Of a DNA stretch of 64,000 bases, positions 259 to 21,786 are shown in pieces. The notes beneath the pieces were generated by a model. It did no database searches and had not been told where the DNA came from. It was given only the letters and a program-made list of their open reading frames with translations. This stretch comes from a virus. The stretch lies in IMG/VR virus record IMGVR_UViG_3300008120_009632, positions 1 to 64,000 of that record. One strand, given 5' to 3'. Numbering within the stretch: position 1 is the first letter of the stretch; each line of letters starts with the position of its first letter. Both the position numbers and the translations under genes were made by a program.

Positions 259-960
259 TTGATGGCTAAAAATTGTATTTTTTATGATAAATCTTTTTTA
301 GATGATATGTGTGCATATAGATATGACAGTACAGAGGATCATATTGTATACGAAGACGACCATGCAAGCAGCTCAGTTTATATAAAGAATACTATAGACT
401 TGATCACACAAAAGATATATAAAGGAGACAATAATGTATGGTATCCTGTTTTTATTACAAGTGATACTAGTCAAATTAACGATATGTCTTTGTACAAGGG
501 CACCACTACTCTGAGCAATAATGTTGGACTACAGAGTGCAATAGAGATTTTTAATCCTAAATTTAATCATTGGGAGATTGATCAAGTTACTGGTGACGCA
601 TATATGTCTACTGACTGGATATTAACTTCTGATCTTTGTCCTTTTTATCCAGAATATGGTTTAATGTTTTGGTTCAAATACGACCCTATACTCGATCAGC
701 CTTTAGCTATAGATAACATTCCTATAGGAAGTTCGGCATATATAACTTTAGGCCCAGAATCTATTAAGATTAATGATATAGAAGTAGTAATGAAAGATAA
801 AATACTAATTAAACAAGATCTAAATACTTTTTTGATCTCAGATATCGATGCAATAAAACAAAACCAAAATGAATTTTTACCATCTAATGAATATAGACAT
901 ATTACTAGATACATACACATACTTCAAATCTCCACAAATGAGAAACGAAGCATATTTTAG
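259..960 (+). CDS. hypothetical protein (probable virion-region gene)
   Basis: 233-aa ORF (TTG 259, ATG 262) tightly packed with neighbours; no recognised motif. Confidence 0.6.
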   Translation: MMAKNCIFYDKSFLDDMCAYRYDSTEDHIVYEDDHASSSVYIKNTIDLITQKIYKGDNNVWYPVFITSDTSQINDMSLYKGTTTLSNNVGLQSAIEIFNPKFNHWEIDQVTGDAYMSTDWILTSDLCPFYPEYGLMFWFKYDPILDQPLAIDNIPIGSSAYITLGPESIKINDIEVVMKDKILIKQDLNTFLISDIDAIKQNQNEFLPSNEYRHITRYIHILQISTNEKRSIF

Positions 961-3900
961 CGGCTCATCTTCATCATCTTATATATCTCCAGCGTTATCT
1001 CATATATATAGAGAAGTTTATGATACTTTATCGGCAGGATTAAATACTAGAAAAATTACAAATATAGAAGGGAATTTAATACCAGAACCCAATTTCAAAC
1101 CCAATCAGTCGAAACACTTTAAAAGACTATGTCACGTTTTATCTACTCACCCATTAGTGGATAGAACAACAGTATCTTTATTGCGCACACCATATATTAC
1201 ATCTTTAATTAAACAATATATAGATACATTACCTAGATCTATTAATGAAGAAATTAGATCTTTAAAAAATATCTTAAATTTAGTAAGTAAACAGTTTATT
1301 GACCTGTCTAATAGTCGTCATACTAACACACAAGATACATATTCTCATGGTTTAGTAACAACAAAGAAAGATCTATTTAATAAATTAATATCAAAGTATG
1401 GATCCAAACTTGTAATAGATCCAGAAAGCAATATAAAAATTAAATATAAAAATGGACTAAAAAATGGTCCACATGTTAAAATTAATCAAGAAATAACTAG
1501 CAAATGTTCTAAAGTATTAGAAAATCAAAGCGTTTATAATAATATAAAAATTTCTGCAGGATCTTTTAATATCAAAACACAATTTAGTAATAATGAAACT
1601 AAATTAATTTTAGAAAATACTCAGAAAAAAAATGAAAAAATTATAATCCCATTATGGGATATAGAAAAAACTAAATTTAAAAATATTAGAATTCCAGTAA
1701 CAGCTGGTCCAGATATTCGAATAGATTTTGGAAAACAACAAATAGACACTTTGAAAGAGATAGAATACTTTTTTACAGGCTCAGCTATAGACTATAATGG
1801 AAAATATGATACTACTATCATAGGATCAGAAGAACCAGATATCTTATGGAAAAAAATATCAGGCCCTGACTGCATAAGATTTGGTAAGGTCGGACAACCA
1901 TCGATGAGATATGAAACATCGATTGATGCGTCCCCAACAGTTTACATCAAATCTCCAGGAAGATATGTGTTAGAAGTTAGGGTTAGAACATCATTTGGTA
2001 TTATATATGATACTGTGACTATTCATGCTATTGGAGAAATAAAAGGTAAGGATGATCAAAATAAAGATATTGTGATCAAAACATATAGTCTGAAAGAAAG
2101 ACTAAGACCAGCCTCTGTTCAATACATACAGGCAAAAAATAATTTATCAATTATGGTCCCCAATATCAGAGAGTGCTATATTGGCAAACAAGGTGTTTTT
2201 TGGCCATCATATACAGACTGTTCAGTAAAAGTACCACAAGGATTAGCCAATCCCGACGCGCCTCCTGGACCAGGAAATAGTTTACCTCCAGTAGTTTTGC
2301 CTCTTGGAAATAATTATCATAAATTTGCTATGCCTATGACATATGTAAATAATCCAAAATATTCTTATAGAAAAAATATACAGAATGGCCCGGTAGATTT
2401 TGATATTAATTATCAATCTCATAATACAAAGATAGAATTAAATCGAATTATATTAACTAACTTATCTTCTCATGAAACATCAGCGTCTAAAGAGTATGAT
2501 TTAACAAATAGAGTAGGGAGAGACTTGTCTGTTTATGATCCCGACTCTAATGGCTGTGAATCTATATATGAAGGAGTTTTAGATAATAGAGGATTTATTT
2601 TAGATGGAGGATCAGAAAATGCTAGTTTTTCTTTTATAGATCCTTCAAACAATAATCAAATAGTAACAGTTAATGGATTAGATAGCCTACAAACAAAAAG
2701 ATTTGCAACAAAAACATACGGAGGATTTTCTAAAGCACAAGTTGATAAATTAGGAATTAAAATACCATTTCATCCATCTGTAAATAATTATCTAACTCCT
2801 ATTAGAACAACAGGTAATTTTTTAAGTGCTCCTAAAAGTGAAACCGATGGAAAAATTACTCAATTATGTCATGATACGGAGCTTCCGGTTAATTGTTCTG
2901 TAGAATTTACTAAAGGATGTTTTCATCCGTTTCATGGATGGACAGATCGCTCCAGCACGAATTTATCTTCTGTAGTTAATTTTGACCCATACAACAGAGC
3001 GGTACAAGTTTTTAAAGGTCCAGGATTTTATGATCTAAATAATAGTTTTGAAGATGGAAAACCTAAAATATACAAGAGTTCAATAACTTTAAGTGTTCAT
3101 CCAGAAGCCTATGATCCTGTGGACGAAGAGGCTAAAAATCCAGAAATTATAGACAAAAAAGAGATCACTGACCACATAGATAACTACGGATATAGAAGCA
3201 TTGGAGGTATTGTAGATCTTAAGATGTTAAACTATAATGATGAATTTGCTGTTGATTTTCCTATTGTTGATGATGCTCCAGTATCATCTGAAAATTATTG
3301 CTTAGATGCTACTCTGGAAGAATACAATTATGGTTCATCTTATGTATTTACTAGACCAGGAGCATTTATACCATTTAAGGATAGAAAAACCGAAAAAAGA
3401 TTGAGATGGAAAAGATATGGAGGAACAAATATATCAAATATAGAAGTTAAACTTAATTTTCTCAATTATGTTAATCCTAAAAATTTAGTAGTTTGGTTGG
3501 AAATAGATACTTGCGCCTTTGTCGCGGAAAGCCTGAATCCTCCAGCACCAGATGATGGTGGCGTAGCTCCACCCCCCAAAGATCCTTGGTTTAAAGGCTC
3601 GTATTACGATACATATCAAAATTTTTCATTACTATCTGGAGATACAAAAAAATATTTATCTTCATTATGGAATATGAACGACAATATCCCTTTGAGTAAT
3701 TCTGAAAAATTAATAGACTTTTCTGGTAGTCCTAAGGTTCCTAGAAACTCTACATATAGGATATATTTATTGAATCAGGACCACATAGCAAACTATGAGT
3801 ATAATGCTAGTCTTAAATTTTCGGATCTTTTAGATTTGATTAATAACCCACATAGTAATAATAATAATGCAGATACGTATAATTCCAATTTATCAACATT

Positions 3901-6900
3901 ATATATAGATAATAATATTTCAAATAAAATCAATAATACGATAGATTTGGCCCCAACATTATCAGCAGCAGGATATGATGATAATCAGGTGGCTTCATAT
4001 AAGAAAATTATTACAGAAAATAAATTATTAAATAATAGTCATAGATTTCAAAAAATTTCCAGTATGCCCATATTCTCTCAGAGTAAATCTGCAAAAAGGA
4101 AAGCGGGTAATTCTTCTGAAACTACATTTAAATTATGTATTGCGGTTATGGACGAAAGCGATCCTTTTGAGCCATATGATAGAATCTTAGCAACCCAAGA
4201 ACTAATAGGATATAATACATGTACCACTAGAAATAGATCAAACCTAGTAGAAAATAGTCTCTGTAATTGGGAATTAATAATACATAGAATTGATGAAAGT
4301 AATGGATTTATTCCTGGCGATTCTTTAGGTAATATTAAATACGAAGATAATAATCCAAATATTCCTGGATATAGTTTTATCGCAGATCTAACAGATATGC
4401 TGCATCTACTACCTCCGGCAGTGATCAATGCTCCTAATTCATATACTATAGATGGAAGACTTTGCAGATATTCGAAAGAAAGTTTAAACGTCCCAAAATT
4501 TTCTCAACCCCTTCCATTTGTAATATTTCCTCTGATCTTGATGTTGCCTACTAGCATTTTAGGGGCATTGGCAGCTATGCCGGGCATAGAAATGGCAATG
4601 AACGAACAAACTAGACAAATAGCTAATTATTTACATTCTTTGAGAAAAGATAGACAGCGAGACATCTTTAATAGGGCATGGTATGTCGCAAATTATGATA
4701 AATATCCTATGGGATCGTCTGACAAGATATTAATCAGCGCATCAAAAGATAATGAATTATTTTATAAAACAGAAGCATCTATATTTAGGTATAGCAATTC
4801 TATTGTAATGCAAAAGCACGACTATAAGTTTTACAAATTACACTATAATAGTTATTTAAGACACTTATCTATATTTAAAATTAATTTAATTGACGATAAT
4901 AATTTTATTAAAACTATTTACAATAATTATCTTAGATCTGCAGATAAAGATTATGTAGGACCATCTGATATATATCAAGACAAAATAGACAATACTAATA
5001 GAAAGAATATTCGAATTTCAAATTATGCGTTAGGTATAGATGCTTTTAAGGATTTATTTTATAGCGATTTATATGTTAAACATAATAATATTTTTGATTT
5101 GTCTAAAAACCCAGATGGGTTTGATAAACTTCTTGAGGAAAAAAGGCTATATGCTATTGATGGATTACGAGCATATTATTTTTTTGAGAACAATAAGACT
5201 ATAGTAGAACTGGCCCCTAAAGAAACAAAGGACATAAATAACGAAAAGATAAAAGAATTAAAGGACAGACTTGCTCAATTACAAGAAGCTAAAAAAACAG
5301 ACTATGAGCAGTACGATGAAGATGAGGTCAAAAACATAGAGAATGAAATTTTCTTGATGTCCTATAACATTATTCCTAATACTATTCAAAACATAGGATA
5401 TATATTTAATAATGTAACATATAAAACAATTATTATTCTACAAAATAAACCTCAGGGAAATATTATATCAATAGATCCAGCTAATAGTAACAGAATTATT
5501 ATGTTGGATAACGATAAAATAACTATCAGTGAGAATGAAACTGTACCATTAGATATATGGTCATTTAATGATTATAATTCACATAGTATTGATACGGCAG
5601 AAAATATTAAAGAATCAGCTTGGGGAGTTAGTAATTATGGATATGGTTCAAATTTAACTACCAGATACATGTTATCCCAGCCGGACATTAATAGTAAAAT
5701 AATACCTTTAATCGATAGAATACATTATGCTAAAAATTCTACTGTAGACTATAACTCGTTTGCTTCACAATTAACTCTTAGTAAGAATACAATACCGGCT
5801 AGTGGTACCACTAAAGGAAATGCCTTTGTTTATACCTTAGATAATATGAATGGTGACCGTAAGAGATATGGTAATGTCTATAGTGATGATAGTCTAAAAA
5901 AATATGTACAACCTGTCATATCCGGCATTAATTACTCTGTTTATGAAAATCAATCCAACTATGGCTATATGACAGAAATTGATGTCTCATTTAATTATGA
6001 CACTCAATCATATGATAAGGGTACTATATCTTTTAATAAAGATATTAATCCTATAGAGATTATGAAGCTTGATAAAGATAGTAAGATTTCAGATCTTATA
6101 GATCGAGATATTCAATTAAACGGTATTATTAAAACTAAATTAGATGAGTTAAAAAATTTATCTAAAATATATAGCTCAGGTACGACAGAACAATTTCCAG
6201 TATCTGAAAAAGAAACAGCAACGAATCAGTTACAAATGCTTTATATAGAAAAGGGTGGTATCCAATACTATCTCAATAAACTAGCATCATCTGGTAATAT
6301 CAGTACCATACCTCATATATCTGTAACGTTAACAAAAAATGACGATGGTTCACTCATTATTACTGAAAAGAAAAATGATAATTTTTATTGGATTAATATA
6401 GATCCTGAACAAGGATGTTCTATAGATAAAGATAGAACTCCCAAAATACTGAAAACGGTTAAATATACATGTTTACAATATGATGATATAATTAGTTCAA
6501 ATGCCAGCAGCATATGCCCAGACGCTACTGCCACAAATATTATAGATGGCGCAGACGAGTCTTTCCGTAATATCGGAATAGACCACATCTATGAACTATC
6601 TGATAAATTAATAGAAGAGACAAAACTTAAATATCCTAATTTAAAATGGCCAGAAGATAATACAATTAATCATGTTGTAGAAAGAACTTTCTTTTTAAAT
6701 TTTCATGGATCAGAAAGGGCTCAAGGCATTACTGCTATCTATAGTTACATATGCCCATTAGGACCAGCGGTCCCAGAGGTAGAACCAGATGGGAATATCA
6801 CAAATAAAGTTTATAATATATTTAACCTAGATAAAACAACAAAATTATATGTTGACTTTAAGAGAATACCACGATTATTAAGAAATAAAGATCCCCAATT

Positions 6901-7171
6901 TGACATGTATGAACCAAATGACTTTGGAGAATTAAGCAAAAGCATATATCCTGCCCCAGGAGGTCCAATAGATGGATCATTTAGAGTTTGGAAATGTATC
7001 GATGCAAAAACTGGAGAATATGTGGTTCCTTATAACCCTTATTATATATGGTTAAATGAGATGTTATTTAGGACTTATTTTGGTAGTGTTGATGGTATCG
7101 AATACCAAGGCAGAGAAACTGTTCAATCTAAAGATGAAGGATACTGGATACCATATGATTTTAGTTACTGA
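869..7171 (+). CDS. very large (2100 aa) putative virion structural protein
   Basis: Long ORF. PKD/Ig-like segment (ILWKKISGPD...PGRYVLEVRV...DTVTI), proprotein-convertase P-domain-like segment (ISNIEVKLNF...NLVVWL...NWELII), one hydrophobic stretch. Function inferred from size and composition. Confidence 0.6.
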   Translation: MNFYHLMNIDILLDTYTYFKSPQMRNEAYFSGSSSSSYISPALSHIYREVYDTLSAGLNTRKITNIEGNLIPEPNFKPNQSKHFKRLCHVLSTHPLVDRTTVSLLRTPYITSLIKQYIDTLPRSINEEIRSLKNILNLVSKQFIDLSNSRHTNTQDTYSHGLVTTKKDLFNKLISKYGSKLVIDPESNIKIKYKNGLKNGPHVKINQEITSKCSKVLENQSVYNNIKISAGSFNIKTQFSNNETKLILENTQKKNEKIIIPLWDIEKTKFKNIRIPVTAGPDIRIDFGKQQIDTLKEIEYFFTGSAIDYNGKYDTTIIGSEEPDILWKKISGPDCIRFGKVGQPSMRYETSIDASPTVYIKSPGRYVLEVRVRTSFGIIYDTVTIHAIGEIKGKDDQNKDIVIKTYSLKERLRPASVQYIQAKNNLSIMVPNIRECYIGKQGVFWPSYTDCSVKVPQGLANPDAPPGPGNSLPPVVLPLGNNYHKFAMPMTYVNNPKYSYRKNIQNGPVDFDINYQSHNTKIELNRIILTNLSSHETSASKEYDLTNRVGRDLSVYDPDSNGCESIYEGVLDNRGFILDGGSENASFSFIDPSNNNQIVTVNGLDSLQTKRFATKTYGGFSKAQVDKLGIKIPFHPSVNNYLTPIRTTGNFLSAPKSETDGKITQLCHDTELPVNCSVEFTKGCFHPFHGWTDRSSTNLSSVVNFDPYNRAVQVFKGPGFYDLNNSFEDGKPKIYKSSITLSVHPEAYDPVDEEAKNPEIIDKKEITDHIDNYGYRSIGGIVDLKMLNYNDEFAVDFPIVDDAPVSSENYCLDATLEEYNYGSSYVFTRPGAFIPFKDRKTEKRLRWKRYGGTNISNIEVKLNFLNYVNPKNLVVWLEIDTCAFVAESLNPPAPDDGGVAPPPKDPWFKGSYYDTYQNFSLLSGDTKKYLSSLWNMNDNIPLSNSEKLIDFSGSPKVPRNSTYRIYLLNQDHIANYEYNASLKFSDLLDLINNPHSNNNNADTYNSNLSTLYIDNNISNKINNTIDLAPTLSAAGYDDNQVASYKKIITENKLLNNSHRFQKISSMPIFSQSKSAKRKAGNSSETTFKLCIAVMDESDPFEPYDRILATQELIGYNTCTTRNRSNLVENSLCNWELIIHRIDESNGFIPGDSLGNIKYEDNNPNIPGYSFIADLTDMLHLLPPAVINAPNSYTIDGRLCRYSKESLNVPKFSQPLPFVIFPLILMLPTSILGALAAMPGIEMAMNEQTRQIANYLHSLRKDRQRDIFNRAWYVANYDKYPMGSSDKILISASKDNELFYKTEASIFRYSNSIVMQKHDYKFYKLHYNSYLRHLSIFKINLIDDNNFIKTIYNNYLRSADKDYVGPSDIYQDKIDNTNRKNIRISNYALGIDAFKDLFYSDLYVKHNNIFDLSKNPDGFDKLLEEKRLYAIDGLRAYYFFENNKTIVELAPKETKDINNEKIKELKDRLAQLQEAKKTDYEQYDEDEVKNIENEIFLMSYNIIPNTIQNIGYIFNNVTYKTIIILQNKPQGNIISIDPANSNRIIMLDNDKITISENETVPLDIWSFNDYNSHSIDTAENIKESAWGVSNYGYGSNLTTRYMLSQPDINSKIIPLIDRIHYAKNSTVDYNSFASQLTLSKNTIPASGTTKGNAFVYTLDNMNGDRKRYGNVYSDDSLKKYVQPVISGINYSVYENQSNYGYMTEIDVSFNYDTQSYDKGTISFNKDINPIEIMKLDKDSKISDLIDRDIQLNGIIKTKLDELKNLSKIYSSGTTEQFPVSEKETATNQLQMLYIEKGGIQYYLNKLASSGNISTIPHISVTLTKNDDGSLIITEKKNDNFYWINIDPEQGCSIDKDRTPKILKTVKYTCLQYDDIISSNASSICPDATATNIIDGADESFRNIGIDHIYELSDKLIEETKLKYPNLKWPEDNTINHVVERTFFLNFHGSERAQGITAIYSYICPLGPAVPEVEPDGNITNKVYNIFNLDKTTKLYVDFKRIPRLLRNKDPQFDMYEPNDFGELSKSIYPAPGGPIDGSFRVWKCIDAKTGEYVVPYNPYYIWLNEMLFRTYFGSVDGIEYQGRETVQSKDEGYWIPYDFSY

Positions 7172-16345: not shown

Positions 16346-16374
16346 ATTATAGCCCGGTCGGACAAGAATGTCAA
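16346..16374 (-). promoter_or_regulatory. consensus sigma70-type promoter for ssb
   Basis: Minus strand TTGACA-N17-TATAAT, a perfect match, overlapping the dnaE-C stop codon. Confidence 0.85.
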
Positions 16375-17987
16375 GACCTGGGAACAAAACATTTATCTAC
16401 GACTAGCCCATCCTTGGTCTTGCTTTTATTTCCCACAAAAATCAAAATATTGTTTTCGAATAAATGATGCTTATATTTTGCATATGTTTCTGGAAAAAAG
16501 ATAACAGAATCTAATGAGCCTGTTTGATCTTCTATTGAAACAAAAGACATCTCCTGTCCAGATAATTTACCCTTTTTAGTTTTTATGACATTAATATTTG
16601 TGATTTCACCAGCAATGACAATATTAGAAGTACTATCATTATTTTTAAATGCTCTACAATCTACATTAGTCATATCTATATCATAACTATCTAACTTAGA
16701 ACAAGATATCGCAGTTCCAAGCAACGAAGCCTCTGTGTCTGCTAGCCATTCTATTTTATCTATTAAAGAATATGGTGGTTTATTAATACTCTGTAATAAT
16801 CCTTGTATTATTTGTTTTCTCTTTAGATTAACCTTGGGATGGCTTAGTAAATAACTTAATATATCTTTTACAGACGTTGTGTTTTTGGTCACTATAATAG
16901 CATATTCTATCTCTTTTTTGGTTAGAGAGCTAATAATATCAAGCTCAAATAACATTTCTGTTCTATTCTTAGATAAATAATCAATAGCTCCACTAGAAAT
17001 CAGAGCTTTAGCTGCTATAGAGTTGATATTGAGCAACAGCTTTATTAAAAGGTCTATCCATCCTAGCTTATACAAATCTATATTTACGCAAATATCTAGG
17101 ATTTTAGCGAATACAGAGTCTCCGACACCTTTTATGTCTGTTAAACCAAAATAAATTTTATTATCAAAGATTCCGAAGTTAGGATTCTTTAATCTTAAAT
17201 CTGGTAAGCAAACAGAAATATCCATTTCGCTTGCGTTCTTAATTAATTCTTTTATTTCCTGTTGAGGATCTATTTTGTCTTTGGCAAATTTTAAATAGGA
17301 TACAAAAAATGCCTCAGGAAAATGAGCTTTTGCATAAGCAGATAAATATGCGTTCATTGCATACGATATGCCGTGAGACTTATTAAAGGAATATCTTTGA
17401 CTTTTTTCGATCCAGCCGAAAATTTCTTCTGCTTCTTGTATATTTACAATTCCTAGTTTTTTTGCTCCATCTAAAAACTTTTGTTTAACCTTGGCCATTT
17501 CTTCTGGTTTTTTCTTACCAATGGCTTTTCTTAACGAATCAGCTTCTTGCAAATCGAATCCAGCTAAGTCTTTAGCTATTGACATAGCTTGTTCTTGATA
17601 AATCATTTCTCCATATGTTGTACTTAAAGATCTTTCAAGAGATTCATGAAAATAATTTATGGATTCTAATCCATTCTTTTTATCTATATAATGATTTGTT
17701 ACGCTTTTGCCGTCTCTGATAGCCTCTAGACATCCTGGTCTTAAGATACTAATAAGACCCGATAATTGTTCTATATTTTCTGGTTTTAATTTTTTTGCCA
17801 TCATTTGTCCAAGTCTGGACTCTAACTGAAAGCAACCTTTAGTATTACCAGAAGAAATAAGCTCCCATGTTTTGGAACATGATAGATTAATAGACTCTAT
17901 TTTTGGAGAAAAAACAAGCTTATGTTTATTTCCAGATGATCCTATTATATCGAAACAACATCCACAATCAAATGACCATTTAGGCAT
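16371..17987 (-). CDS. dnaE: DNA polymerase III alpha subunit, C-terminal half (fingers, HhH, OB fold)
   Basis: GNTKGCFQLES, RPG, TYGEMIYQEQAM, ADSLRKAIGKK, YSFNKSH, GLTDIKGVG, OB-fold C-terminus. Confidence 0.92.
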   Translation of the reverse strand: MPKWSFDCGCCFDIIGSSGNKHKLVFSPKIESINLSCSKTWELISSGNTKGCFQLESRLGQMMAKKLKPENIEQLSGLISILRPGCLEAIRDGKSVTNHYIDKKNGLESINYFHESLERSLSTTYGEMIYQEQAMSIAKDLAGFDLQEADSLRKAIGKKKPEEMAKVKQKFLDGAKKLGIVNIQEAEEIFGWIEKSQRYSFNKSHGISYAMNAYLSAYAKAHFPEAFFVSYLKFAKDKIDPQQEIKELIKNASEMDISVCLPDLRLKNPNFGIFDNKIYFGLTDIKGVGDSVFAKILDICVNIDLYKLGWIDLLIKLLLNINSIAAKALISSGAIDYLSKNRTEMLFELDIISSLTKKEIEYAIIVTKNTTSVKDILSYLLSHPKVNLKRKQIIQGLLQSINKPPYSLIDKIEWLADTEASLLGTAISCSKLDSYDIDMTNVDCRAFKNNDSTSNIVIAGEITNINVIKTKKGKLSGQEMSFVSIEDQTGSLDSVIFFPETYAKYKHHLFENNILIFVGNKSKTKDGLVVDKCFVPRS

Positions 17988-18681
17988 TTATAAAAGATCC
18001 TTTAAATTTTACCTTATTAGATAAATTTCTATGTAGTTTTAAAAATCTAATCATAATTTCTGCTGTATCTTTAACATCTTTTAGAGCATCATGAGCATTT
18101 TCTTTATCTATACCAAGATAATCTCTTAAGTTATCTAATGTATAGTTTTTTAATTCATTATTATACTCAAACCAATAAAATAGTAAATTCATAACATCTA
18201 TCACATCTCTTGGATAAAATAGAGAAGATCTACCTTCTTTATTTAGATTATCATACTTTTTACTTAATCTCTCAATGATTCTCAAATCAAATCTATTAAT
18301 ATTGAACCCTGCCGCGATTGGTGCAGAAAAGCAGGACTTTTTATTTCCATTTGATCTGGTATGATACATTTCCAAATAAGAAACAAACATCTTCCATCCG
18401 GCTTCTTGAGGTTGATGTTTCTTCCATGAATCAAGAATAGCCGCCTTAGAACATCCTCTTACTTTAGAGTGAAAGTCTAACACATCGCTATCTTCATAAG
18501 CATAGCCGGTATTGTCCTGTAAAAGTTCTGGTTTAAGATTTATATTAAACTCTGAGTCTTTAACTATCTCTAGTTTTATTGGATCTATAATAATCGCAGC
18601 AATTTGTACTGGACTGCATACATCCGGATTGACTCCATCTGTCTCCATGTCGAAAACACATATTTTTTGAAAATTAGGCAT
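17980..18681 (-). CDS. DEDDh 3'-5' exonuclease (DnaQ/epsilon-like)
   Basis: FDMETDG (ExoI), GFNINRFD (ExoII), HDALKD (ExoIII). Confidence 0.9.
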   Translation of the reverse strand: MPNFQKICVFDMETDGVNPDVCSPVQIAAIIIDPIKLEIVKDSEFNINLKPELLQDNTGYAYEDSDVLDFHSKVRGCSKAAILDSWKKHQPQEAGWKMFVSYLEMYHTRSNGNKKSCFSAPIAAGFNINRFDLRIIERLSKKYDNLNKEGRSSLFYPRDVIDVMNLLFYWFEYNNELKNYTLDNLRDYLGIDKENAHDALKDVKDTAEIMIRFLKLHRNLSNKVKFKGSFINA

Positions 18682-18853
18682 TAATTGTCACCGTTGTGGA
18701 TGCTTGAACGAATGTTTTGGTTGATGGATTGTTAGCGTCCTGAGCGTTGATAGATCTGCAACAACTAACTCTAACTTCTTGAATCTTGATATAAGATACT
18801 CCATTTAATTCGAATCTATCTCCGACAGCTAATTCTGAAAATACTTTATTCAT
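18674..18853 (-). CDS. 59-aa hypothetical protein (not in ORF track)
   Basis: Read by hand: MNKVFSELAVGDRFELNGVSYIKIQEVRVSCCRSINAQDANNPSTKTFVQASTTVTINA; preceded by AAGGAG; fills the gap between dnaE-N and the exonuclease. Confidence 0.75.
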   Translation of the reverse strand: MNKVFSELAVGDRFELNGVSYIKIQEVRVSCCRSINAQDANNPSTKTFVQASTTVTINA

Positions 18854-18855
18854 AA

Positions 18856-20736
18856 TTAAACTCCTTCTACTGATAATATTTGGGAAATATTCATAATTTT
18901 ATCTAACATTGCTATTCCAAGAATATCAAATTTGATTACACCTAAAGATTCAAGATCTTGCATTTCCATACCAGCTATTAACTGTTTATTTTTATTATCA
19001 TAAACCATTGGGCATATTTCAGATAACTTTTCTTGAGATATCACAACACCAGCAGCGTGTTTTGATTGGTTAGATTTTGTTCCTTCTAAACGAATCGCTT
19101 GTTCAAATCTTTTAGCGAGAGGACCGGACAGCGTCCCGTCATCTAGTAAATAACACCATTCCTTGAGTTTGTCAACATTATTTTCTAAAGCCCATCGTAT
19201 AATAGATGCTTCTCCCGTTTCCTCTTTCATTTCCTGCAATTCATCTGCTATCTTGGCTTCGTCAGGGATGTATTTGGTTATTTTATTCATTTCATCAAAA
19301 GAAATATTTCCGTATACTCTTAAGACCTCTTTTAATGCTCCTCTTCCTTTCATAGTATTAAAAGTGATCATTTGAGATACTTTATCATGACCATATTTAT
19401 CTTTGATGTATGCAACAACGTCCTCTCTTTTATTGATAGGAACGTCAACGTCTATATCTGGCATGGATACCCTATCCTCTGTATTTCGTCCAGCATTATA
19501 GAATCTCTCAAATATAAGATCATTTTTTATCGGATCTATACTGGTTATGCCTATCAAATATGAAACAAGACACCCTGCCGCACTACCTCTTCCAGGCCCA
19601 GGAAGCCAACCATTAGAGGCCACGTAGTTAACTATATCCTGCACTATTAAAAAGTAGCTAGACAGACCAGCACCCTGTAAAACAGATAGTTCGTATTTGA
19701 TCCTATTGACATACTCTTCTTGTTTATCTTGTTCTATAATATTTGCAATCTTTTCTTTCCAGCCATTTCTACATAATTGTCTCAGATATTCATCCGGATT
19801 ATCATCGTTCGGACACTTAAACAAAGGCAACATTGGTTTATTTGTAATGTCATAATCTTCACACATAGATGCTAATTCTATGGTTTGTTCTAATTCGTCT
19901 TGATTATGTATTTGTGTCATTTCTTCAAATGAAGGAATATGATATTTGTCGGATTTAAAGAAACAAGACATTGGAGTCTCTTCATCAGAAATTAGTTTTC
20001 TGTTAATGTCTGTTAACGTTGTCTTTAAATTATTACACAAGAGAATTCTTTGATCAACAGCATCATCAGACTCACAATAATGAGCATCAGGAGTTGCTAT
20101 TATTTTAGTATTGGTTATTTTAGCCAATCTTCTAATTTCTTGAGTAAGTTCTATCTGGTCCTTATTTTGTTCTTGATCGATTAGTTGTGCTTCAAGAAAA
20201 AAATTATTTTCTCCAAATCCAGCTTTGAGTTTTTGAATAAGATTAATAGTTGCGTTGGAGTCATTATTCTTTATACTATTTGCTACTAACGATCCAAGAT
20301 GACCAGCAAAGCCAATAATATTACCATCTAAATACGGCAATAGAGTATCTATATCTATTCTTGGTTTGTGATAAAAAATATCAGGACTATTAGACTTTGA
20401 AATAATTTTTATTAAAGATTTCCATCCATGATAGTTTTTAGCCAAAACTATAAAATGACTTAATTTAGAATTTTCTGGAGTTTTGACTGTACAATCATTA
20501 TTGGATATATACAATTCACATCCTAATATTGGTTTTATACCATTCTTCTTCATGGAAGAATAAAATTGTACAGCACCAGATATTGTTCCGTGATCTGTGA
20601 TTGCACAAACTTTAGATCCAATTTTTTGGCATCTTTTAGCTATTTGTTCTGGTTTACTGAGTCCATCCAAAAGTGAATAATGAGTCACTTAGGAATGGAC
20701 GTGTAAAGGGATATATTCCTTAATCACGTCCATCAT
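18856..20736 (-). CDS. dnaE: DNA polymerase III alpha subunit, N-terminal half (PHP + palm), with in-frame TAA at 20691-20689 after codon 15
   Basis: MMDVIKEYIPLHVHS*VTHYSLLDG; TDHG, GCE, DAHY, GPGRGSAAG, FERF, MPDIDVD, KHAAGVVI, KFDILG; SD AAGGAG before ATG 20736. Confidence 0.92.
20695..20733 (-). other. RNA hairpin at the dnaE 5' end (candidate recoding/regulatory element)
   Basis: Perfect 9-bp inverted repeat ATGGACGTG (20733-20725) / CACGTCCAT (20703-20695) with inner AAGG/CCTT pairing. Confidence 0.65.
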
Positions 20737-21786
20737 TTATTCTCCTTCTATGCTTCCTGGAGCTTTATATTTTCCAAACGAATGATTTGGATGTTTATAT
20801 GATTGTACCACAGAATCAATCCCATGCAACTCTAAATCATGTTTGATTTGTTCGCATTTGGTCATAAATTCGCCCTGCTTGCACGTTTGATTATCTCTGT
20901 ATTCTAGTATTGGTAAAATGCTAGAATCAGAAAAGTTAGTTTTTCCAAAATGGCACAATTTATTACACATCCAACTTTTATGCAATTTTGGCTTTTTAAC
21001 CGACTTGATAATCTCAAATTTTTGTCTTAACATATCTTCTGTTTTTTGAAGATCACTCTTATCAAAACATATAGAGAATGGACCACCATCATTAATGAAA
21101 TAGATGGAAAATATAATATGATCTATATGAGGATATAATTGGCTAATAGCATAATGGTATATTCTCAATTGTGGATCATTTTCTAATTTTTCTTGAGTCT
21201 TTTCTTGTCCTGTAGCCCAATCTAATCTTCTTCCAGTTTTCCAATCGATTATTTCAATAGTATTATCATTAACAAGAGTTATTAAGTCGATTGTTCCTTT
21301 TAGCGCCAGATTACCCGTTAAGACCCCGTCTGGTGTTTTAAAAGAGTATTCAGACCACGCTTTATTTATAGTAAAGTCGAAGTGTTGCTCCGGCTCAAGA
21401 ATTTTCCTATTTCTGGGATCAAACATACCATTATTGAATTTGATTGCCTTGTACACCCATTCTGTACAGTCTTTTTTGTCTTTAGGGCTCCATTTATGGT
21501 GTTTGGCAGATACCGAATAATGATTATAGACTACATCTATGATTTTTTCTAGATCATAATTGTTGATATCTATTAAGCCCGCTATATCATCATTGATGTT
21601 TGATTGGTTATCTTGTTCGGCTTTTTTAATAACAGCTAAAATTTCAAGAACTTTATGTACTATTGTTCCTTTATCAGCCTTTTGTCCAGACGGTCCTCGC
21701 CAACCAAGCACATATTCGATAAAATACTGCTGCTCACACATTGAATGAGCATTAAAGCTTGATGATCTAAAATATGTTATTATAAT
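20737..21786 (-). CDS. PD-(D/E)XK nuclease, Cas4/AddB-like with four Cys (Fe-S staple), probable non-AUG start
   Basis: GTIVHKVLE, GTIDLI, IIDWKTG, QLRIY; Cys at HSMC and WMCNKLC...KCE; frame extends upstream as IIITYFRSSSFNAHS to ATT 21786 / ATA 21783. Confidence 0.8.
   Translation of the reverse strand: MIITYFRSSSFNAHSMCEQQYFIEYVLGWRGPSGQKADKGTIVHKVLEILAVIKKAEQDNQSNINDDIAGLIDINNYDLEKIIDVVYNHYSVSAKHHKWSPKDKKDCTEWVYKAIKFNNGMFDPRNRKILEPEQHFDFTINKAWSEYSFKTPDGVLTGNLALKGTIDLITLVNDNTIEIIDWKTGRRLDWATGQEKTQEKLENDPQLRIYHYAISQLYPHIDHIIFSIYFINDGGPFSICFDKSDLQKTEDMLRQKFEIIKSVKKPKLHKSWMCNKLCHFGKTNFSDSSILPILEYRDNQTCKQGEFMTKCEQIKHDLELHGIDSVVQSYKHPNHSFGKYKAPGSIEGE

Follow-up and report, generated by a model that had tools for sequence, protein, structure and literature searches.

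The DNA studied here comes from an uncultured lake phage, and by "the window" we mean the whole stretch analysed, i.e. 64,000 nt of IMG/VR record IMGVR_UViG_3300008120_009632 (87 kb in full). Neither a cultured host nor a cultured phage could be identified for it, as searches against cultured phages gave no DNA match with blastn and only relatives at about 34% identity with tblastn. Candidate hosts are freshwater bacteria of low GC content in which Shine-Dalgarno sequences are used. We found no tRNA genes either in the window or in the remainder of the 87-kb record, and thus no phage tRNA-Ser. The phage polymerase is split into an N-half and a C-half, with the exonuclease as a further separate piece. 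The 5′ end of the gene for the N-half of DnaE lies directly downstream of a PD-(D/E)XK nuclease gene (20737-21741), whose TAA immediately precedes the first ATG of the following features:

18856-20688, minus strand: main ORF of the dnaE N-half, 610 aa as listed from GUG; PHP domain without HxH, plus palm domain
20692-20736, minus strand: mini-ORF MMDVIKEYIPLHVHS, 15 codons, ending in PLHVHS; uninterrupted relatives have homologous residues at their start (the first 13-15, M..Y.PLH.HS)
20742-20747, minus strand: Shine-Dalgarno (SD) sequence AAGGAG of the mini-ORF, 5 nt from the first AUG and 8 nt from the second

The minus strand reads AAGGAG (20747-20742)-N5-ATG ATG GAC GTG ATT AAG GAA TAT ATC CCT TTA CAC GTC CAT TCC TAA GTG ACT CAT TAT TCA CTT TTG GAT GGA, which translates as MMDVIKEYIPLHVHS*VTHYSLLDG. 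The mini-ORF ends at a UAA (20691-20689, minus strand), and the main ORF, in which the domains PHP and DNA_pol3_alpha are recognised, continues downstream of this stop in the same frame. Residue 2 of the main ORF aligns with residue 14 of Thermus aquaticus DnaE (2hpi), and thus the first strand, bearing HxH, is absent from it. Judged by its homology, the mini-ORF is the true N-terminus of DnaE and carries both His metal ligands of the PHP motif. A reading made earlier from the letters of this DNA (the sequence-only reading) had stated that most of the other PHP ligands are intact and that the GTG after the stop has no SD of its own. Both statements agree with our results, as the DHG, GCE and DAH motifs of the main ORF align with their counterparts in Taq DnaE and the only SD present serves the mini-ORF.

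Reality and conservation of the interruption

The HxH codons are separated from the Tyr/Phe codon by exactly 6 nt in all 43 distinct uninterrupted relatives, while in the window this distance is 15 nt; nine extra nucleotides are thus present, in frame. Together with the minus-strand reading, this invariant spacing confirms the central claim of the sequence-only reading, namely that the DnaE PHP motif is split by 9 in-frame nt containing a stop codon. The insert is neither an assembly error nor a private lesion. An independent contig, obtained from one of 20 sequencing runs (13 studies) that contain at least half of the sampled words, is identical to the window across 20419-21000 (one contig compared), and the same 9 nt are found in near-identical contigs of three further IMG/VR samples. 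Two runs compared at the level of raw reads gave no coverage of the stretch, and the sole RNA run listed was tiny and without a match. The possibility that all close relatives are uninterrupted, raised earlier as the case against the idea, is not what we found, as the interruption is conserved in many lineages.

At least 22 distinct interrupted 5′ ends, all at the same dnaE site, were collected from IMG/VR and metagenome contigs, alongside the 43 uninterrupted relatives. A pattern scan of metagenomes gave, among the matches listed, mostly chance hits in unrelated sequence and at least two new distinct variants. The DnaE proteins of the interrupted set are 67-94% identical, and an AGGAG/AAGGA motif occupies the SD position in every member. 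The extra length is 8, 9, 10, 11 or 12 nt (1, 6, 8, 6 and 1 distinct sequences, respectively), and all three reading frames are therefore represented: 15 of the 22 sequences are out of frame, and the window and six others (the 9- and 12-nt classes) are in frame. What remains constant is the form UCY(Ser)-UAR-2 to 6 nt-UCN/ACU-CAY, whose parts in the window are as follows:

20692-20694, minus strand: proposed take-off codon UCC (Ser15); UCY followed by UAR in 22 of 22 distinct sequences
20686-20691, minus strand: non-coding gap UAAGUG, i.e. the stop plus 3 nt; 5-9 nt in relatives
20683-20685, minus strand: proposed landing codon ACU; UCN in 17 of 22 sequences, ACU in 5 of 22 including the window
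20680-20682, minus strand: resume codon CAU (His), followed by UAU UCA; coding-type variation in relatives

A hop from Ser(UCY) to the Ser position would restore the canonical HxH-S-H-Y-S, with its 6-nt spacing, in every length class. The stop codon of the gap is UAA or UAG in the interrupted sequences, never UGA. AGY never occurs at their landing codon, although 12 of the 43 plain relatives have it there, and the Ser codon after Tyr is always UCN in interrupted genes, unlike in plain ones. The variation seen is mostly of the kind expected of translated sequence. Upstream of the gap the mini-ORF keeps Y-x-P-L-H-V-H-S with synonymous changes in Pro (CCT/CCG) and Leu (TTA/TTG/CTT). Downstream of it, changes in the landing, His and Tyr codons fall mostly at third positions, and the His codon (CAT/CAC) and the Tyr/Phe codon (TAT/TAC/TTT/TTC) vary even where no in-frame start precedes them. 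By this pattern of change, both flanks of the gap are under coding constraint.

The landing codon of the window deserves a separate comment. ACU could pair with the Ser anticodon at codon positions 2 and 3 only, and this mismatch at the first codon position, shared with four other sequences, speaks against bypass. So does a perfectly matching UCA, one base beyond ACU and out of frame, which could capture hopping ribosomes unproductively.

RNA helices around the gap

Three helices, one forming a hairpin that we call SL1 and two forming the stems of a take-off hairpin, are predicted around the gap:

20725-20733, minus strand: 5′ arm of SL1, AUGGACGUG, which includes the second AUG; pairs with 20695-20703
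20695-20703, minus strand: 3′ arm of SL1, CACGUCCAU, the His-Val-His codons; pairs with 20725-20733
20671-20690, minus strand: upper stem of the take-off hairpin, AAGUGA (20690-20685) with UCACUU (20676-20671, Ser-Leu codons)
20661-20700, minus strand: lower stem of the take-off hairpin, GUCCAUUC (20700-20693) with GGAUGGAC (20668-20661, Leu-Asp-Gly codons)

All nine pairs of SL1 can form in 22 of 22 interrupted sequences; G-U variants occur among the pairs, as does one compensatory change from GC to AU. The folding energy of SL1 is -18.4 kcal/mol (z -5.3). SL1 is absent from 43 of 43 plain relatives once five chance matches are set aside; the 8/9 complementarity seen in these five genes is artefactual and due to a TTGCATGTG palindrome overlapping the HxH codons. 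The upper stem, whose loop CUCAUUAU contains both the landing and the resume codon, is a helix of 5-8 bp in all interrupted sequences. Its arms come in compensatory types (GUGA/UCAC, GAGA/UCUC, GCGA/UCGC and ACGA/UCGU), with both-side changes at two of six pairs by a formal count. Cognate arms form 7.0 bp on average, as compared with 4.5 bp for non-cognate ones. For the lower stem, which excludes SL1 and is excluded by it, complementarity is 8/8 in 23 of 23 interrupted sequences and 3-8 (mostly 4-6) in plain ones. Synonymous choice is constrained here in interrupted genes only: Asp is GAT in 21 of 21 and Gly is GGR in 21 of 21, as compared with GGY in 20 of the 43 plain genes. The whole take-off hairpin reaches -18.5 kcal/mol (z -5.1).

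Overall, 98.1% of cells are paired versus 32-57% with the partners slid, both-side changes occur at three pairs, and the covariation score exceeds that of 500 of 500 shuffles. The minimum free energy of the 90-nt region is -27.4 ± 1.8 kcal/mol in interrupted genes and -11.0 ± 2.4 kcal/mol in plain ones. G-U pairs, found in 10 of 22 and 7 of 22 sequences at two positions, fit a structure of the sense RNA and not of DNA. Compensatory changes and synonymous-site constraint support three helices confined to the interrupted genes. A search of Rfam gave no meaningful match, with just three weak, below-threshold hits to unrelated families at E<=1. The helices could alternatively serve initiation control or mRNA stability, which counts against bypass. 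The earlier suggestion of a switch that controls PHP activity would be compatible with two mutually exclusive and equally stable hairpins.

A candidate translational bypass and its alternatives

We propose, with a probability of about 70%, that the nine nucleotides are the coding gap of a programmed translational bypass, a short, independent parallel to gene 60 of phage T4. A literature search found no description of a bypass in dnaE. In the proposed scenario, ribosomes would initiate at the AUG behind the strong SD, translate the 15-codon mini-ORF and pause, the P site holding UCC with peptidyl-tRNA-Ser and the A site UAA. Rather than terminating, the peptidyl-tRNA would release its codon, the mRNA would slide by 9 nt (8-12 nt in relatives), and the tRNA would re-pair at the landing codon (ACU here, mostly UCN in relatives), which itself would not be decoded. 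Decoding would then restart at CAU and yield a single DnaE N-half with normal HxH-S-H-Y-S spacing. Two RNA structures would drive this movement. In the take-off hairpin, the 5′ strand comprises take-off codon, stop and gap, and the loop offers the landing codon. SL1, which competes with it, could re-form behind the ribosome only as the HVH codons leave the exit channel, and would pull the mRNA forward by approximately one hop length. What the comparison shows is a conserved, frame-independent gap, the co-varying helices and, in relatives, the link to an endonuclease; that ribosomes hop, what each helix does and that the cassette arose by homing (see below) is what we infer from these patterns.

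Two other recoding events were considered and rejected. A His-to-His hop (CAU to CAY) would remove two residues from the spacing that is invariant in the 43 relatives. A +1 or -1 frameshift has no slippery site here, and no single shift would suit all five length classes.

In the window, where the gap keeps the frame and the stop is immediately followed by GUG, a product could arise by reinitiation or readthrough as well, which is a point against bypass. In the former case, ribosomes would terminate at UAA and the same ribosome would restart at the adjacent GUG, the outcome being a DnaE N-half that lacks the HxH strand and a separate peptide of 15 residues, which would either complement the PHP domain in trans or be dispensable. 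UAAGUG is indeed an ideal stop-start overlap, like those of known stop-start coupling (UAAGUG/AUGA), with the UAA of the window followed immediately by a GUG that is in frame in the window, L093 and L063. Moreover, the polymerase is already made of several pieces (N-half, C-half, exonuclease), so that such an assembly would be tolerated, and 70S sliding followed by reinitiation is established (PMC11194080). However, most relatives have no in-frame start, and the codons before their first possible start are coding-constrained: 11 of the first 20 distinct sequences offer no canonical start in frame from the last in-frame stop up to S-H-Y-S, L011 has a UGA directly before these codons, and the start-less S-H-Y-S codons still show coding-type conservation. 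In the 10- and 11-nt classes the GUG is out of frame and its presence is explained by UCAC pairing, and L037 has CUG in place of UUG, the next candidate start. A non-covalently held strand of 14-15 residues that supplies two metal ligands would also be, to our knowledge, unprecedented for PHP domains. We thus regard reinitiation as unlikely; the earlier idea of a trans-acting peptide made by restart at TAAGTG might apply to the window alone, but it does not hold as the general case.

Readthrough of the UAA, which in the window would place three extra residues between HVHS and HYS, seems very improbable to us. A downstream hairpin can stimulate readthrough, and the gap is in frame in the window and six other distinct sequences, but 15 of the 22 distinct sequences are out of frame, and readthrough would add 3-4 residues to an HxH-Tyr spacing that is invariant in 43 plain relatives; UAA is, in addition, the least leaky stop codon in bacteria. 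The sequence-only reading had offered readthrough and ribosome hopping as one option, of which the comparative data favour the hopping half and not simple readthrough, as only the 9- and 12-nt classes are in frame. Exact excision of the 8-12 nt from RNA, either as a micro-intron or by endonuclease-plus-ligase splicing guided by the two hairpins, would likewise account for frame independence and restored spacing, and the removed piece does lie between or within conserved helices. Yet this is the least probable of the readings considered. The micro-intron suggested earlier found no support, as no Rfam family matches and 8-12 nt is far below the size of any self-splicing intron. We know of no such splicing machinery in bacteria or the phages that infect them, a scan of the genes nearby revealed none, and an invariable stop after the Ser codon, together with a UCN/ACU landing codon, are features of decoding and not of splicing.

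A quite different view is that the insert is a tolerated scar, i.e. a neutral or mildly harmful remnant of homing that leaves a truncated DnaE whose PHP domain lacks two ligands, with the hairpins serving only initiation control or protection from the endonuclease. DnaE of the E. coli type functions with a degenerate PHP site. Some relatives have HNH genes linked to the cassette, and in T4 the gap protects from cleavage by MobA (bioRxiv 10.1101/2022.08.31.505936). Nevertheless, coding constraint acts on PLHVHS of the mini-ORF in every lineage, the remaining PHP ligands are intact, and the start-less downstream codons are conserved. Covariation of the upper stem, whose loop contains the landing codon, also persists across lineages in which the endonuclease was lost long ago. 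It is thus hard to credit that the insert is a mere scar, and we hold this as improbable as readthrough.

Known bypass systems and the origin of the cassette

Natural examples of efficient programmed bypassing are scarce (T4 gene 60 with its homologues, the yeast mitochondrial byps, and candidate phiHau3 inserts), and its rules are still debated. T4 gene 60 has a stop behind its take-off codon and a stem-loop at take-off. Forward movement is proposed to result from a 5′ stem-loop that re-pairs at the exit, and the MobA homing cassette is often lost with the gap retained (bioRxiv 10.1101/2022.08.31.505936; 10.1101/2024.12.09.627546). The resemblance to dnaE is considerable: an essential replication gene is split by a non-coding, frame-independent gap (see also PMC5462505), the stop directly follows the take-off codon, a stem-loop has both of these in its 5′ strand, another stem-loop further upstream is able to re-form behind the ribosome, an HNH-type homing endonuclease gene adjoins the cassette in some members and is often lost with the gap kept, and the distribution on the host-gene tree is patchy. 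On the other hand, the host gene differs (the dnaE PHP motif versus the Toprim domain of a topoisomerase), the gap is 5-9 nt instead of 47-50 nt, and take-off is from Ser UCY instead of Gly GGA. Here, unlike in gene 60, the take-off hairpin carries the landing codon in its loop, and the two hairpins have a strand in common and exclude each other. As the hop would come after just 14-15 codons, a long nascent-peptide signal is impossible here, in contrast to gene 60; that gene 60 requires such a longer signal, and that the nascent peptide here has just 15 residues, may be held against bypass. We saw no sequence homology between the two cassettes, and the hop in dnaE is a prediction from sequence. 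The dnaE cassette would work like gene 60, but it is not a member of the gene 60/MobA homologous family, whose gap of 50 nt lies in the gene of the topoisomerase II large subunit together with conserved gene 60 sequence elements.

In the terminase gene of Streptomyces phage phiHau3, too, blocks of about 10 nt split a conserved phage gene, a slow-to-decode A-site codon opens the gap and local stem-loops bring the landing codon near (PMC10732093). The 10-nt inserts are bypassed in E. coli according to mass spectrometry, which supports bypass rather than a frameshift (PMC10732093). The gene and the host are different, and only a few natural examples of the phiHau3 inserts are known, as opposed to about 22 co-varying variants of dnaE. 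The byps of Magnusiomyces capitatus are likewise mobile, hairpin-forming non-coding inserts that are skipped between matched codons; they are, however, mitochondrial, 27-55 nt long and present in many copies per genome, with no link to a homing endonuclease (summarised in PMC10732093). The dnaE interruption, unlike these multi-copy elements, occupies a single site in one gene.

If the bypass reading is true, dnaE would provide a second phage system, unrelated to that of gene 60 and much shorter. Its variants amount to a mutagenesis experiment done by nature, with gaps of five lengths in three frames, stems of several kinds, and landing codons that match or mismatch, which allows direct tests of how mRNA folding at exit and entry of the ribosome drives sliding, of the minimal nascent chain and of landing-codon strictness. 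We tentatively extend the proposal to a portable minimal hop module of about 95 nt, an idea that in our opinion falls a little short of even odds. In such a module, two exclusive hairpins of equal stability would share the HVH strand, one of them freeing the start codon and presenting the landing codon, the other ratcheting the mRNA by about the length of an arm; it would be spread by HNH endonucleases, and the gap would confer immunity to their own cut. If this is true, no long nascent-peptide signal would be needed, an imperfect landing codon could be tolerated, and the module would be a second natural system of bypass, evolved independently, whose roughly 22 variants cover all gap lengths between 8 and 12 nt. 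It would be a further case for the idea that homing endonucleases gain immunity through inserts that translation must skip. For annotation, it matters that these dnaE genes are called as N-terminally truncated ORFs without two metal ligands.

As to the origin of the interruption, an HNH homing endonuclease gene most likely introduced the cassette of about 95 nt and was later lost from the window; no HNH gene adjoins the cassette there, and the stop of the PD-(D/E)XK gene abuts the AUG. In the 90 nt after the cassette, identity between interrupted genes (0.669) is not raised over that of other pairs (0.656-0.660), and thus recent homing with long co-conversion tracts is not supported. In L082 and L108, an HNH homing-endonuclease gene for a protein of some 240 aa lies directly upstream and ends 2-3 nt past the 5′ arm of SL1, with the SD inside its 3′ end, and a 34-aa HNH relic is kept in L164 and L189.

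Interruption of dnaE in the window and in its relatives

The site of interest lies in a replication module on the minus strand. The window (GC content 31.6%) covers the first 64 kb of an IMG/VR virus record of 87,451 bp with a CheckV completeness of 63%, and at least half of the window's sampled words occur in each of 20 runs from 13 studies, mostly freshwater or lake metagenomes by label.

Genes of the replication module in the window
minus strand, DnaB-like helicase
minus strand, Toprim primase
minus strand, dNMP kinase
20737-21741, minus strand, PD-(D/E)XK nuclease
18856-20688, minus strand, dnaE N-half with PHP and palm (610 aa)
between dnaE N-half and exonuclease, minus strand, 59-aa ORF
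17980-18681, minus strand, DEDDh exonuclease
16371-17987, minus strand, dnaE C-half with fingers, HhH and OB (538 aa)
minus strand, SSB

Directly after the TAA of the nuclease gene, the minus strand opens with ATG ATG GAC GTG, preceded at 5 nt from the first ATG by AAGGAG, and runs through ATT AAG GAA and TAT ATC CCT TTA to CAC GTC CAT TCC, where a 15-codon mini-ORF (20736-20692) ends at TAA; it goes on with GTG ACT CAT TAT, then TCA CTT TTG GAT GGA. The sequence-only reading had described this as a split DnaE motif, and sequence and translation confirmed every detail. Its remark that most other PHP ligands are intact held as well, as DHG, GCE and DAH are in place in the 610-aa ORF aligned to Thermus aquaticus DnaE (2hpi). 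Because residue 2 of this main ORF aligns with residue 14 of 2hpi, it lacks the first strand, which bears the HxH ligands.

The window's dnaE consists of two separate genes (16371-20688, minus strand) with the DEDDh exonuclease gene and a conserved, roughly 60-aa ORF in between, and this order is common to all related loci compared. A Pfam scan of the dnaE-module ORFs (16371-20688) found no intein domain, and the whole record contains no tRNA or tmRNA genes. A 2100-aa ORF at 869-7171 is on the plus strand; nearly all the window's remaining genes are on the minus strand.

A related-locus search gave 80 IMG/VR loci, with 67-94% identity to the window in the DnaE N-half. In 63 of them (43 distinct 5' ends) the gene is uninterrupted and reads M..Y.PLH.H-S-H-Y-S-LLDG, and its HxH and Tyr/Phe codons are invariably 6 nt apart. 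The remaining 17 are interrupted at the window's site, as are further viral and metagenome contigs collected by the pattern TTNCAYGTCCATTCYTAR; pooled, they amount to at least 22 distinct sequences. Moreover, an independent contig from another study spans the site with 0 differences from the window. An assembly error and a lesion private to this virus, both raised earlier as ways of dismissing the interruption, are thus excluded.

Every interrupted gene follows the pattern HVH-UCY-UAR-(2 to 6 nt)-[UCN or ACU]-CAY-UAY/UUY-UCN-CUN, and the extra length is such that all three reading frames are represented.

Extra length relative to uninterrupted genes, in distinct sequences among the matches listed
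8 nt, 1 sequence
9 nt, 6 sequences
10 nt, 8 sequences
11 nt, 6 sequences
12 nt, 1 sequence

If the Ser of HVHS is kept and reading resumes at CAY, the canonical spacing is regained in every length class. The mini-ORF maintains Y-x-P-L-H-V-H-S while its Pro and Leu codons differ synonymously among interrupted relatives, and changes in the landing, His and Tyr codons lie chiefly at third positions; both flanks of the gap therefore appear to be protein-coding, each in a frame of its own. Of the first 20 distinct interrupted sequences, 11 lack an ATG, GTG or TTG in the downstream frame on the stretch from the last in-frame stop to the S-H-Y-S codons (in the related locus L011, UGA stands immediately 5' of these codons), and the sole SD of interrupted genes is that of the mini-ORF. 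For these reasons, the downstream frame would have to be reached by ribosomes coming from the mini-ORF.

Two mutually exclusive hairpins restricted to interrupted genes

In the 9-bp hairpin SL1, the 5' arm AUGGRCRUG includes the start codon, and its partner CAYGUCCAU consists of the HVH codons. Pairing is 9/9 in 22/22 interrupted sequences, where G-U variants and a single compensatory change from GC to AU occur, and none of the 43 distinct uninterrupted genes has it. The alternative long hairpin consists of two stems. The upper one joins the stop codon and gap to the Ser-Leu codons following Tyr, and its arms co-vary (AAGUGA/UCACUU, UAGAGAAU/AUUCUCUA, AGCGAAU/AUUCGCU, UAACGA/UCGUUA, AAGUGAGA/UCUCACUU, AAGUGGGU/ACUCACUU). 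In the lower one, GUCCAUUC, made of part of the SL1 3' arm and bases 1-2 of the take-off codon, pairs with GGAUGGAC of the Leu-Asp-Gly codons; complementarity is 8/8 in 23/23 interrupted sequences versus 3-8 in uninterrupted ones. Synonymous constraint at the Asp, Gly and Ser codons is confined to interrupted genes: GAT, GGR and UCN are each used in 21/21, versus GGY in 20/43 and AGY in 23/43 uninterrupted genes.

In a covariance-model alignment of 22 sequences, 98.1% of cells were paired versus 32-57% with partners slid, three pairs showed changes on both sides, and the covariation score exceeded 500/500 shuffles; this alignment was fitted to the structure, which biases its pairing and covariation counts in favor of it. 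Comparison of upper-stem arms is free of that bias and gave a mean of 7.0 bp for cognate versus 4.5 bp for non-cognate arms. The frequent G-U pairs fit a structure in sense RNA, not DNA. Predicted folds of the window reach -18.5 kcal/mol (z -5.1) for the lower and upper stems together and -18.4 kcal/mol (z -5.3) for SL1, and the two are mutually exclusive, with the GUCCAU strand common to both. Over a 90-nt region, folding energy is -27.4 +/- 1.8 kcal/mol in interrupted and -11.0 +/- 2.4 in uninterrupted genes.

Programmed bypass as a candidate mechanism

Judged by sequence comparison, the 5' end of dnaE carries a conserved recoding cassette, and we consider programmed translational bypass its best explanation, with a probability of roughly 0.7. 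We infer the following course. Formation of the long hairpin would leave the SD and AUG accessible, and 15 codons would be translated until peptidyl-tRNA-Ser sits on UCC (20692-20694) with UAA in the A site. The A-site stop, together with a stem-loop starting at the take-off codon, would disfavor termination, as in T4 gene 60 (10.1101/2022.08.31.505936; PMC5462505). At this point the SL1 5' arm would be outside the ribosome and its partner, the nine bases that immediately precede the P-site codon, still inside. SL1 could then re-form only with a forward shift of the mRNA by some nine bases, equal to the hop length; for gene 60, pairing of exiting mRNA has been argued to drive forward bypassing (10.1101/2024.12.09.627546). 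Finally, peptidyl-tRNA would re-pair with the landing codon, which the hairpin loop presents, and decoding would restart at CAU (20680-20682).

A weak point of the bypass reading in the window is the landing codon, ACU, which can pair with a Ser anticodon at just 2/3 positions. The 8-nt group of related locus L062 also lands on ACU, and does so without a start codon, which argues that ACU may be workable. Compared with cassettes of the L108 type (another related locus; UAAGUGAA-UCU), that of the window looks like a 2-nt deletion turning an 11-nt gap into an in-frame 9-nt one. A perfect Ser codon, UCA (20683-20681, inside ACUCAU), lies one base 3' of ACU and out of frame; a ribosome landing there would read nine further codons and then meet a stop, the UAA of GGA UGG ACU CAG UAA.

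Because GUG follows UAA in frame in the window, reinitiation there, giving a two-piece product, is conceivable, as is readthrough of UAA into the in-frame gap, which would add three residues. The former seems unlikely to us and the latter highly improbable; among relatives, gaps occur in all three frames and a downstream start is often missing. That the interruption is a tolerated scar, in genes that keep both flanks coding and the stems paired, is just as improbable as readthrough, and RNA excision, which like a hop would restore the motif, has the slimmest chance.

The element is gene 60-like in its working but outside the gene 60 family. The host gene differs, the gap is 5-9 nt instead of about 50 nt, the hop comes after just 14-15 codons, the take-off hairpin has the landing codon in its loop, and two hairpins compete for one common strand. 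A precedent for natural gaps this short is the phiHau3 terminase, which has 10-nt inserts and for which a junction peptide was detected by mass spectrometry in E. coli (PMC10732093). Our literature search found no paper describing a dnaE bypass.

Distribution of the cassette and homing endonucleases

Interrupted genes are scattered over a FastTree phylogeny built from 62 distinct N-halves, with 10 parsimony changes between states, at least 7 being required by starred branches. Gene order is identical in interrupted and uninterrupted loci, and the identity of cassette flanks gives no sign of recent transfer. In two interrupted loci, L082 and L108, the nuclease gene and dnaE are separated by a gene encoding about 240 aa, with HTH and HNH/EndoVII-type domains (PHROG 3322, 374, 1035; E 1e-22 to 1e-14); its 3' end spans the SD and the SL1 5' arm, stopping 2-3 nt past the arm. 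Loci L164 and L189 retain just a 34-aa C-terminal relic of it (82% identity), and such a gene is absent at the window and most other interrupted loci. MobA and gene 60 show the same pattern, frequent loss of the endonuclease with the gap retained (10.1101/2022.08.31.505936). The gap may confer immunity to endonuclease cleavage.

Several loci have additional endonuclease genes or domains, or a divided N-half (locus-internal coordinates). L059 has an extra 231-aa HNH endonuclease gene (4866-5561; PHROG 374, E 8.5e-24) that separates the small ORF from the dnaE N-half and is missing from the sister locus L075; it is a second homing site within the same polymerase module. In L122, the upstream PD-(D/E)XK nuclease gene (1274-3328, 684 aa) includes a LAGLIDADG domain, either an intein or a fused homing endonuclease, and the dnaE N-half (3442-5584) is apparently divided into a 433-aa and an overlapping 309-aa ORF. 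The N-half of the endonuclease-bearing L082 (1575-3866) is likewise divided, into a 456-aa and a 277-aa ORF, which suggests a further interruption or a frameshift. L030 and L031, with uninterrupted dnaE, carry a related HNH endonuclease gene at about 1423-1929, which is some 1 kb upstream of dnaE. Free-standing members of this endonuclease family are therefore common in the phage group.
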